From the IMG/VR virus record IMGVR_UViG_3300019378_000951, positions 64,001-128,000 of that record: 64,000 nucleotides of DNA; one strand, 5' to 3'. Positions 43,901-47,678 of this stretch are shown here, piece after piece. Every line of letters starts with the position of its first letter. Within the stretch, counting starts at the first letter, position 1. Origin of the DNA: a virus. Taxonomy: Duplodnaviria; Caudoviricetes. A program made the position numbers and the translations under genes. A model generated the notes under the pieces. That model did no database searches, was not told the DNA's origin, and saw only the letters and a program-made list of their open reading frames with translations.

Positions 43901-46900
43901 CTTTAGATAAAAAAGTTAATATAATAAATATTATACATTAGGAGGTATGACATGTTAGGATTTATAGTATCAACTTATTCAATTACCGCAATAGCATTAT
44001 TATATAAACTAGTTACAATGAATGACAACGAATAATAAAAATTATGGAGGTATTTATTATGGAAGATTATAAAGTTATAATAAAATTATTAGATGTAATA
44101 GATACTACTAAAGATGAATTTATAAGAGATCTAGCATTAGCAGCAATAACAGATCTTAATAATACAGATCAAAGAATAGATGTATTAAATTATATATTAA
44201 ATTAATAATAAAGGTTCTAGGAGATTTATCCTTAAAGTCTCCTTCCAATGAGGATTATCTATGATCCTCAAAAAAATTTAAATTAAATTTGTGGAGGTAA
44301 TATTATGAATAAAAGAATAGAAAATCAAATTAACGCTGTTGGATTAAAAATGGAATTTGATGAATTAAAGCCACAAGTAGAAAAAGTATTGAAAAGAATA
44401 GAAATTGAAATTATAATGATAGATTTACAATATGAAGATAAATTAAGAGATTTTGAGATGAGAAACAAACTGCATGAAAAACAAGCAGAATTATTAAAAC
44501 AATTAAATCATATAGATGATATAGAACAAAAAGCAATAGCATATAATAATCTTAAATTAGTATTAAAATGTGAAGCACTAAAAATTGAAGTAAGAAATCT
44601 AATGGAACATGTTAGAAACAAGTATATGTTCTAACCGTATTAATAAAAATTATAAGTATATAATATATCTGTGAATAAAATTAAATTATAGGGGGAATTG
44701 ATTATGTTAAATTTATTAAAAGGTATAGCTGAAGTATTAGTAGAAGTAGGAACAGGATTATTTAGTAATGAAGTAGTAATAGAAGAAAAAGAAACTAATA
44801 ATGAAACTTATGAATACTTTAGGTATTTAACTTATGAAGAACAAGAAGAATACTTTGACTATAACTTAGATTTACAAATGTATAAAGATACACACTATTA
44901 CCCTAATGATAGAGATATGACTGCTAAGAAAGCTCAAGAATTAGCAGATAAACTTGGTAAAGAATTTACAAACAAAAACAAAAGATATTAATAGAAATGG
45001 TTCTAGGAGATTTATCCTTAAAGTCTCCTTCCAATGAGGAATTTCTATGTTCCTCTAAAAAATTAAATTAAATTTGGAGGTAGATTGTATGAAATTAGTA
45101 GATATATTACCTTATTTAGAAAATGGTGAAAAAGTAAGAAAAACTTATTGGGATAAAGATAAGTATATTCGTGTTTCTAGATGCGGTATAATAGTAGACC
45201 AATCAGGCAATAACGAACCAACGCCAATAGATTTAAGAGATGTATGGGAACTATATGAGGATTAAATTATAATTGTGAAAGAATAGAAATATCATAATGA
45301 TATTTCTATTCTTCAAAAAATTAAAATTAAATTAATGGGGTGTATTTATTATGAGAATAAATGAAGTTAAAATGTATACAATGTATTTAGAAGCTGAGGA
45401 ATTTGAATTATTATATTCAATAACAAAAGAAGTTGGTTATGAATATTCATATGATGAAAATGAAAAAGAATATATAATAACTATAGATGAAGATGAATTA
45501 GACGCTATACAAGATAAATTAGATTATGAATCTTATATACAAGAATACGAAGAATGTAATAGTTATCAATCTAATAGAATAAAAAGATTAATAATAGACA
45601 TGAATTACGAATTATAAAAATTTAAAGTTCTAGGGAGTTAATCTATAAAGCTCCCTTCAAATGAGAATATTAAATTCTCAAAAATTTAAATTAAATTGGA
45701 GGTAATGTGTATGAAATTATTTATAGGATTACTATTATTATTTGGTGGAGCTGATCTATTTTTAAAATTTAAATTAATAGAATTACTTATTGATAAAGCA
45801 GAACTTAAAAATGTAGAAAAAGAAGACGAAGAATAATAAATTATAAAAGGGAGATTGATATCATGAAACAAACAGACTTAGTATATACAATAAACGAAAA
45901 TTATTATATAGAAATTAGAATAAGAAAATGCTATAATGTATTTAGACTTAGACTAATGAATAAAAACAAAGAACGTATAGATGAGATATGTTGTCCACAA
46001 GATCAATATAATGAATCAATGGAAACATTAATAAATTTGGTTAAGTAATAAAAAATTAAAATTAAATTTGGAGGTATATTTATGAGAATAGTTAAAATGT
46101 TAATAGAAGGATTAAACATTACAGAGGAAACAATAATAACCGAACTACCAGAAACAGAAGCTTGTGAAACTTGTGAACTTCTAAATCAGCATAATCCAAA
46201 TGAATATTGTTACTATCAAGTAAGACCTGAGTAGTAATAAATGGTTCTAGGAGATTTATCCTTAAAGTCTCCTTCCAATGAGGATTATCTATGATCCTCG
46301 AAAAAAAATTAAATTAAATTTGGAGGTACTAATATGGAATTTAAAATGTATAATGGTAAAAAACCTACAGAAATGGAAATTGCAGCTTATGAAAAAATTG
46401 ATAAATTATATAAAGAAGATCATAATGAGTTAAATGACACATTATGGCATTATATGTATTCTTACCTATTTGATGACAATATAGATTTATGGGTGTATGC
46501 AGACGAAATGTATAATTATTTTGGTATAGATACAGCTGAAGAAATTGTAAAGTATATAAATGAAATGTAAATCAGATTGATATAATTTAAAAGATTCTTA
46601 AAAATTAAATTGGAGGCATTATTTATGTTTGGAAGATTAATAGATAAAGTTAAAGATACAGTTAGTGATATAGCATTCGATATTAAGTATGGAACACCAT
46701 TAGATAAAGCTAAAGCTGTTGGGAAAGTAGCATTATTTACAGCTGATGTAGCAACAACAGTAACAGGCGTAGGTGCGGGTGCAAAAGTAGCTAAAACCGC
46801 ATACAAATTAAATCAATGTGGTAAAGGAGCTAAAATGGTAACAACATTTACAGCTAATGCTCAAAAAGTTAATATACCTAAAGTAGCTAAAGCTATAAAT

Positions 46901-47582
46901 TACGGAGTTGCTAGAAGTACAACCGAAACAGTTAAAACACTTTATGATCATAACAAAGATAATAAGTAATAAAATGGTTCTAGGAGATTTATCCTTAAAG
47001 TCTCCTTCCAATGAGAATATTAAATTCTCATAAAAAATTAAATTAAATTTGGAGGTAATTGCCCTATGAAAAATTTATTAAACAATGCTGTAAATGAATT
47101 AGTTGTAAGAGTTAATGAAGAATACGATAATGCTAGAAAAGAAATTAAAGTATTAGAAGACAAAGGGCTTAAGTTAAATGCATTATACGAAAGAAGACAT
47201 AATATTAAAAATCTTTTTAATAAATTAGACATATTAAAAGATAAAGCACAAGAACAATTTCCAGAAGAAGATGTATTAGAATTTGATATAGATAAATTTA
47301 AATTCATAATGAATATTCAACTAGAAGATATGTTAGACATAGTAAATGAAGCATATGTAGGAATAATAGACGAAGAAGAATATGAAGAATGCTAATTAGC
47401 ATTCTTCTTTAATAAAAAAAATTAAATTGGAGGTATTAGATATGAGATTATATGAAGTATTAGTAATGGGAAGTATATTAGTATTATGTGCATCAGGTGT
47501 AATATGGCTATTAAAAGATTTATATAGACAGATAAAAACTTATGAAGAAAGATGTGAAAGTATAGAAGAAAAAGAAGAGTAA
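40987..47582 (+). CDS. Dense array of more than 25 small early hypothetical genes (about 27-150 aa)
   Basis: Co-oriented ORFs, nearly all with GGAGGT RBS; includes ORFs missing from the track (43952-44035, 44059-44205, 45711-45836, 46082-46234, 47442-47582). Confidence 0.7.
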
Positions 47583-47647
47583 CAATAAAGGTTCTAAGAG
47601 GTTTATCCTTAAAGCCTCTTTCCAATGAGGATTATCTATGATCCTCA
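44213..47647 (+). repeat. Six copies of a ~57-nt double-hairpin intergenic element (44213-44270, 44999-45055, 45626-45680, 46243-46299, 46976-47030, 47590-47647)
   Basis: Consensus GGTTCT-AGGAGATTT-ATCCTTA-AAGTCTCCT-TCCAA-TGAGGAT-TATCTATG-ATCCTCA, then AT leader and RBS; compensatory stem changes between copies. Confidence 0.92.
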
Positions 47648-47678
47648 AATTTAAATTAAATTTAATGGAGGTATTATT

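Follow-up and report, generated by a model that had tools for sequence, protein, structure and literature searches.

What is the function of a short double hairpin that recurs between the small early genes of an uncultured jumbo phage? The element lies in a stretch of 64,000 nucleotides, hereafter the window, which is positions 64,001 to 128,000 of the IMG/VR record IMGVR_UViG_3300019378_000951; the record is a jumbo-phage contig of 216,390 bp with 27% GC and an estimated completeness of 84%. A first reading of the window (the original prediction) had described a six-copy, covarying element that divides the early genes into cassettes, and had suggested that it is either an undescribed structured RNA or a recombination site of the integron style. 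To our knowledge, very little is known of how early expression is controlled in jumbo phages of the AR9/PBS1 type after the virion RNA polymerase (RNAP) has fired. We find that the double hairpin is clearly a real structure of the sense-strand RNA, with a fold that is kept by selection. As to its function, we tentatively favor a post-transcriptional punctuation module, serving for processing, end protection, or insulation of the ribosome-binding site, a reading that may well be wrong.

Structure and conservation of the element

Six direct copies of the element lie on the + strand, in the region 44213-47672 (Table 1), with start-to-start distances between successive copies of 786, 627, 617, 733, and 614 bp. 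A fuzzy search, a skeleton motif, and a covariance model alike find exactly six copies in the 216,390-bp record. The element is about 55 nt long and comprises, in order, GTTCT, stem 1, a loop, the linker TC(C/A)AAT, hairpin 2, and a run of A. In the window copies, stem 1 has 9 bp, including U-G, U-A, and U-A pairs, loop 1 has 7 nt, and hairpin 2 has 6-9 bp; over all copies, including those from the relatives described below, stem 1 has 7-9 bp with a conserved A-U-C-Y-rich loop, and stem 2 has 6-9 bp. The two hairpins are flanked and separated by single-stranded GUUCU and UCCAAU, both of which are conserved. Each copy fills a gap of 94-99 nt, in which the stop codon ends 7-9 nt ahead of GTTCT, and the distance from hairpin 2 to the next ATG is 29-33 nt.

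This anatomy bears out the original prediction closely. It had placed each of six copies between a stop codon and a AAATTAAATT-GGAGG leader, which holds throughout, with the positions and spacing now measured. The variants that it listed for stem 1 (AGGAGA/TCTCCT, AGGGAG/CTCCCT, AAGAGG/CCTCTT) and for stem 2 (GAGGAT/ATCCTC, GAGGAA/TTCCTC, GAGAAT/ATTCTC) are exact, and the flanks GTTCT and TC(C/A)AAT are fixed in the six copies, as it had said. Copy 5 is indeed a mosaic, with its left half as in copies 1/2/4 and its right half as in copy 3, and the U-tail reported as missing is absent, hairpin 2 being followed by the A-run instead. The claim that the stems covary was pursued with a covariance model, R1, of the kind that it had suggested building.

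The skeleton pattern first matched metagenome contigs, and R1 then gave further copies: diverged ones in two related phages represented by larger pieces (L017 and L019), five apiece in two clusters in viral contigs of 228 kb and 203 kb, and a single copy in one further lineage. Altogether, 19 additional distinct copies were obtained from six related lineages of uncultured jumbo phages, with 1 to 5 per lineage. The fold was examined in an alignment of 25 distinct copies from 7 phage lineages. Standard pairs occupy 97.8% of the cells of this alignment, compared with 44-59% after a shift of the 3' partners by 1-3 columns, and compensatory changes, with both sides altered, occur at 11 of the 15 base pairs. 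The observed covariation values were matched by none of the shuffles (0/500), and RNAalifold, run unguided, predicts both helices. The relatives contribute further variants of stem 1 (CGGGAG/CUCCCG, GGGAGGC/GCCUCCU, AGGAAGC/GCUUCCU) and of stem 2 (AAGGAU/AUCCUU, GGGGAU/AUCCCC, AGGAA/UUCCU). The covariation noticed in the window therefore holds for the larger set of copies and lineages, where the pairing beats both the slid and the shuffled controls.

One pair is U-G in 16 copies and C-G in 8, and there are three more G-U pairs. On the antisense strand these G-U pairs would be A-C mismatches, so it is the sense strand that folds. The sense fold is also the more stable in 23 of the 25 copies (-19.0 vs -16.4 kcal/mol, z = -5.4), and every copy is co-oriented with its flanking genes. 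The suggestion of an undescribed structured RNA is thus strongly supported, by the covariation, by the sense polarity, and by the lack of any match in Rfam, in the phage database, or in AR9, as detailed below.

Several other descriptions of the structure were set aside. In most copies, loop 1 (AUCCU) could instead pair with the 5' arm of stem 2; this fold is broken in copies 3 and 5 and excludes the covarying stem 2. A mini open reading frame (ORF) from the AUG of the linker is ruled out by the missing Shine-Dalgarno (SD) sequence, the variable length, and the loss of the AUG in two relatives. Stem 1 followed by U-CCA recalls a tRNA minihelix or RNase P substrate; a minority of copies lack the CCA, the helix is short, and a T-loop is missing, which leaves this an idea of low probability. 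A mimic of the repeats of CRISPR (clustered regularly interspaced short palindromic repeats) is ruled out, as there is no match to a direct-repeat family in Rfam and the stems covary between copies.

Between genomes, the element is 88-98% identical, whereas the genes next to it reach only 65-73% identity at the nucleotide level and 36-56% at the amino-acid level. Loop 1 occurs as two subtypes that follow the phage lineage, UUUAUCC[U/A]UAAAG and a GC-closed AUCUYUA(U)AAAA. These features bear on the main rival to our proposal, in which a dedicated RNA-binding protein, from the phage or its host, uses the element as an operator, recognizing loop 1 together with GUUCU/UCCAAU and co-controlling the translation or decay of a set of early cistrons, for example in early shut-off; the closest analogues would be the T4 RegA/RegB targets and coat-protein operators. 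An operator would explain why loop and flanks are conserved while the stems covary, why the loop subtypes go with the lineages, and why the element is conserved far above the neighboring genes. Gene family F1 also adjoins the element in 8/9 occurrences, an adjacency that is statistically weak because about half of the cluster genes touch an element. However, no candidate protein was found, the cassette genes having no Pfam or PHROG family, and copies have been lost while the neighboring genes stay. We consider the operator unlikely, though a serious contender.

The element within early operons

In AR9, the early promoters of the virion RNAP have the consensus AAATATATATTAT-N6-G (PMC5312081). 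The genome studied here holds many matches to this consensus, 27 of them within 120 nt upstream of an SD sequence and start codon, and for this reason the uncultured phage appears to use early promoters of the AR9 type. Three promoter-like sites just ahead of the cluster or within it, at 43037, 43353, and 44654, are predicted to start the element-bearing operons; that at 43353 also lies in the 45-nt repeat listed in Table 1. RNAP beta-like segments are encoded at two loci of the phage, and among cultured phages PBS1/AR9 come closest to it by DNA polymerase (30% amino-acid identity). AR9 shares the promoter consensus but does not have the element, and an R1 scan of AR9 gave no copy (best E-value 0.1).

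The original prediction had drawn the leader into the layout of the element. The leader does follow every copy; it is nevertheless a separate feature. The pattern AAATTAAATT(N0-6)GGAGG precedes 34 genes genome-wide, on the coding strand, and is also found downstream of early promoters, which makes it a general 5' untranslated region outside the element, likely an A/U-rich translational leader common to many genes. Its place after the predicted start sites means that it cannot be a promoter.

The canonical terminator at 42976 (Table 1) shows that U-tract terminators are in use on the + strand, and a second lies at 48294. An intrinsic terminator is a GC-rich hairpin with a U-tract directly behind it. 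Among the elements, only copy 6 passes a lax scan for such terminators (AATTTAAATT), and the elements do not qualify as intrinsic terminators. The six gaps that hold them contain no AR9-early promoter, no AACA-N6-TR late motif, and no sigma-70 motif. With gaps free of promoters and elements free of U-tracts, the elements must sit inside polycistronic early mRNA, and the transcripts are predicted to run from 43353 or 44654 to about 48318. A promoter function of the element itself is ruled out, as it has no sigma-70, AR9-early, or AACA-N6-TR motif inside.

The position of the element 7-9 nt after stop codons would suit a 3'-end former or attenuator for the multisubunit RNAPs of the phage, that is, a partial terminator or pause without a U-tract that creates an expression gradient along the operon. 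There is a precedent in the giant phage 201phi2-1, in which many mapped termination sites share sequence motifs and not all are classed as intrinsic (PMC11512511). On the other hand, no U-tract follows the element, whereas the phage has canonical U-tract terminators, and the downstream cassettes of 1-3 genes have no recognizable early or late promoter, so that efficient termination would silence them. We think an attenuator quite unlikely, and termination as the main role is rejected for the absence of a U-tract and of downstream promoters.

The constant distance from the stop codon to GUUCU might also reflect translational coupling, in which GUUCU or UCCAA pairs with the downstream SD and a ribosome terminating 7-9 nt upstream opens the pairing. 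Minimum-free-energy folds of many copies do pair UUCU or UCCA with the GGAG of the SD. The partition function of the 25 copies gave no consistent signal: the SD is unpaired with a mean probability of 0.43, whether or not the 5' flank is masked, while pairing of the SD with the flank averages 0.23 and with the linker 0.12. Both pairing partners are invariant and so show no covariation. Coupling is, in our judgment, very improbable.

Two hairpins within about 60 nt of nascent early RNA also call to mind the processive antitermination RNAs of the HK022 put type, which act in cis on the transcribing polymerase, and there are weak terminator-like hairpins within the operon, at 45277 and 47384. But six copies in 3.5 kb are far above what this mechanism needs, the copies stand after stop codons and not after promoters, and there is no sequence or family match. 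We give antitermination the least weight of all the explanations considered.

Hairpin 2 and the 5' ends of primary early transcripts

Six of the 27 predicted early transcripts open with a strong hairpin at, or at most 4 nt from, the +1 G. In these six, an A-rich leader comes next and the SD follows at +45 to +59. The distance from hairpin to SD is 22-23 nt both for these 5' hairpins of primary transcripts and for hairpin 2. A related arrangement occurs inside cassette 2, where a hairpin and leader (45277, Table 1) follow a degenerate promoter; the position of this hairpin relative to the SD equals that of hairpin 2. Its identical copy at 54225-54262 has as its first nucleotide the +1 G of a consensus early promoter (54206). 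Hairpin 2 and the A-rich leader thus copy the layout of the primary early transcripts, with a 5' hairpin, a leader, and an SD. Upstream of gene family F1, the window and two relatives (L012 and L016) have the element, whereas L017 has an early promoter; the two modules are interchangeable at this place. In another relative, L020, hairpin 2 alone is found after a stop codon.

Gene order and recombination

The comparison of gene order with relatives, which the original prediction had suggested, shows that the order differs around the elements. In the 7 lineages, families of small genes are common to the relatives and their order is shuffled. Family pairs separated by an element differ between genomes (F5|x43, F5|F2, and F5|F3; F2|x58 and F2|x104; F1|F5 and F1|x89), while the element-free pairs F14-F2 and F8-F9 stay adjacent. 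At two conserved junctions shared by L017 and L121, one genome has an intact element and the other has a remnant that keeps only the 3' half of hairpin 2.

It is possible to read these data as a primary role at the DNA level, either as a site for cassette exchange, site-specific as in integrons, or as a selfish or mobile repeat. The mosaic copy 5, the near-identical copies amid highly diverged genes with variable order, the presence or absence of a copy at the same gene junction, and the precedent of the PeSL (promoter-early stem-loop) repeats of T4-type phages (PMC2839356) are all in keeping with it. However, the compensatory changes with sense-strand G-U intermediates indicate selection on RNA pairing, and the "empty" conserved junctions are decayed remnants and not clean sites, with no target duplication seen. 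Searches of the 216-kb, 84%-complete record with PF00589 (tyrosine recombinase) and PF00239 (serine recombinase) gave no match, and no integrase or resolvase was found in it. The attC site of integrons is one imperfect hairpin with the core sites RYYYAAC ... GTTRRRY and extrahelical bases, whereas here there are two separate perfect hairpins; the 5' end of the element, GTTCTAG, does not fit GTTRRRY, and RYYYAAC is absent. Given the lack of both a tyrosine or serine recombinase and attC features, a system of the integron type is rejected, and a primary role in DNA exchange of any kind seems to us improbable.

What survives of the recombination site proposed originally is the use of the repeats as substrates of homologous shuffling, to which the variable neighbors and the mosaic and lost copies point. 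PeSL-like homologous shuffling of cassettes at the copies is plausible, on a sample of 7 lineages in which the whole region is plastic.

Searches for known families and other carriers

A cmscan of positions 40000-52000 against Rfam, with E up to 10, gave no match on the elements, and blastn of the element against 50,697 phage genomes also gave none. The strict skeleton pattern has no match in the viral or genome contig collections. A looser pattern for hairpin 2 gave 83 matches in unrelated bacteria among the genome contigs, which is about the number expected by chance, and these were not used. The leader pattern was found in one unrelated viral contig of 185,683 bp (L009), in which the leader is present and the element absent. 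The contigs L015, L018, and L020, which are short metagenome or Logan contigs, start or end inside an element; we take these ends as assembly breaks at a multi-copy repeat and not as RNA ends.

Proposed function

The punctuation module that we favor would work as follows. Long early mRNAs made from the AR9-type promoters by the virion RNAP would carry the elements internally. An endonuclease, either a host enzyme of the RNase Y type or some phage factor, would cleave the RNA within the conserved single-stranded GUUCU/UCCAAU or right next to them. The upstream piece would then have its 3' end protected by hairpin 1, while hairpin 2 would give the promoter-less downstream cistron a start consisting of hairpin, A-rich leader, and SD, shielding it against 5' exonuclease and insulating the ribosome-binding site. 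As a side effect, the near-identical DNA copies of 60-100 bp would be substrates for homologous recombination, which could reshuffle, duplicate, or delete the blocks of 1-3 genes between them. We observe the repeats, the fold and its strand, the position in the operon, the conservation above that of neighboring genes, and the variable gene order; we infer cleavage, stabilization, the nuclease, and recombination at the copies.

Several points weigh against this proposal. Its central step, cleavage at the element, is wholly inferred. RNase III would need longer stems, and a search of the phage for such an enzyme found none. The conservation of loop 1, GUUCU, and UCCAAU exceeds what a passive protective hairpin needs, and would be explained at least as well by a specific factor that binds there. 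In one lineage, copies have decayed at conserved junctions, which means that a given junction can do without its copy. The region as a whole is rich in synteny breaks, and their coincidence with the elements therefore has no statistical support.

A bolder version, which we consider distinctly unlikely, makes the double hairpin the recognition site of a dedicated phage-encoded factor that binds or cuts RNA, and at the same time a point of DNA exchange for early-gene cassettes between co-infecting jumbo phages. If it were true, this factor would set the ends, stoichiometry, and timing of the messages made by the injected virion RNAP, and the element would be a portable "punctuation mark" at both the RNA and the DNA level.

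The outcome of this work is a compact, strongly covarying RNA motif at cistron boundaries that is specific to an uncultured clade and is reusable as a covariance model. If the element does process or stabilize mRNA, as we propose, it would be a small portable part for tuning operons in low-GC bacteria and would offer a handle on mRNA decay during jumbo-phage infection.

Neighboring genes and other features

The coordinates of the element copies and of the features around them are given in Table 1. The cassette genes are ORFans, with no match to a Pfam or PHROG family. Directly after copy 6, an ORF of 202 aa (47679-48287) contains the motif HELGH and weakly matches a PHROG metalloprotease family (E = 0.008); as a query, this protein found no relatives in the viral contigs. 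The alignment of family F1 is too diverged to serve as a query. A 300-aa ORF at 48848-49750 encodes a coiled-coil followed by a C-terminal Pfam ATLF domain, a metalloprotease domain of the lethal-factor type (E = 8e-11). All-against-all BLAST shows a tandem array of diverged paralogues of 100-120 aa at 60936-63427. A tandem array is also seen in the 228-kb relative L116 (G001:1-2957), where two elements separate three F7-family paralogues of 212-242 aa. An imperfect inverted repeat, long and AT-rich, lies at 50482-50644, and the hairpin 2 remnant (ATGAGAATTTCTATGTTCCAC) at 50650-50672 follows it directly.

Table 1. Element copies and associated features, in coordinates of the window
Feature	Position	Strand	Details
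Canonical intrinsic terminator	42976..43007	+	12-bp stem then T7
45-nt repeat	43016-43071, 43332-43387, 44633-44688		core AAATRTATAMTAT-N6-G, matching AR9 virion-RNAP consensus
AR9-type early promoter-like site	43037..43056	+	AAATGTATAATAT-N6-G; core of 45-nt repeat; consensus PMC5312081
Copy 1	44214..44269	+	GTTCT 44214-44218; stem 1 44219-44227/44235-44243; loop ATCCTTA; linker TCCAAT 44244-44249; hairpin 2 44250-44269; R1 100 bits
A-run, AAATTAAATT leader, GGAGG before ATG	44270..44304	+	layout repeated after 6/6 copies
Early promoter-like site	44654..44673	+	inside cassette 1, between 109-aa and 95-aa genes
Copy 2	45000..45055	+	stem 2 GAGGAA/TTCCTC; R1 93.8 bits
38-nt hairpin + leader	45277..45314	+	inside cassette 2, after degenerate promoter; identical copy 54225-54262
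Copy 3	45627..45679	+	stem 1 AGGGAG/CTCCCT; linker TCAAAT; stem 2 GAGAAT/ATTCTC; R1 73.3 bits
Copy 4	46244..46299	+	core identical to copy 1
Copy 5	46977..47029	+	mosaic of copies 1/2/4 (left half) and copy 3 (hairpin 2)
Copy 6	47591..47646	+	stem 1 AAGAGG/CCTCTT
Hairpin TAGAGGATGT/ACATCCTCTA then U-rich tail	48294..48318	+	likely end of operon with copies 2-6
Decayed hairpin 2 remnant, then leader	50650..50672	+	ATGAGAATTTCTATGTTCCAC

Comparison with known systems

The PeSL cassettes of T4-type phages undergo homologous shuffling, and their authors have likened them to integrons (PMC2839356, PMC4122927). Like the present element, PeSLs are short conserved intergenic repeats that cluster where the early genes are small ORFans and the region is plastic. 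Both flank blocks of 1-3 genes, whose order and content vary between relatives, and neither comes with a dedicated recombinase. In the 7 lineages studied here, the genes are ORFans and the neighbors across the elements differ, in a region that is plastic everywhere. However, a PeSL joins a sigma-70 promoter to a terminator stem-loop, whereas the element has no promoter and no -35/-10 match, the AR9-type promoters being elsewhere. The stem-loop of the PeSL is a terminator, with a hairpin and U-run, while in the element an A-run comes after hairpin 2. The element also differs in its two hairpins, in its conserved single-stranded flanks, and in its location inside operons. If the copies do drive cassette exchange, the PeSL idea would reach a very different group of phages and a promoter-less RNA element.

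The RNase III sites of T7 and SP82 are likewise structured, related, and repeated; they lie between the cistrons of a long early transcript made by a lytic phage and divide it into units with hairpin-protected ends. Substrates of RNase III are duplexes, which may be interrupted, of about 20 bp, or about two helical turns. The element consists of two independent hairpins of 6-9 bp with 6 unpaired nt between them, and so it is not a substrate of the RNase III type. For the Bacillus phage SP82, RNase III processing sites in early mRNA are attributed to Panganiban & Whiteley 1983, as cited in PMC4838370.

The layout of the element matches that of RNase Y maturation sites such as cggR-gapA in Bacillus/Staphylococcus (PMC11780869). 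In B. subtilis, RNase Y sites are AU-rich with a preference for G/A; the hairpin downstream serves mainly to stabilize the cleaved product, with a contribution from the AU-rich stretch that follows this hairpin (PMC11780869). All copies have a comparable layout, AAUAAAG/GUUCU-hairpins-AAAUAAAA, although its features are weak and non-specific. The low-GC host is likely a Firmicute-type or similar AT-rich organism, which fits this likeness. RNase Y sites have only a degenerate consensus, whereas the element is sharply conserved, multi-copy, and two-hairpin, and its cleavage would be by analogy.

Although the element fails the defining features of the T7/SP82 sites and of the PeSLs (the long duplex; the promoter; the U-tract), by analogy it would act like both of them. 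Elements of this general kind are known; the two-hairpin, promoter-less motif and the uncultured clade that carries it are new.

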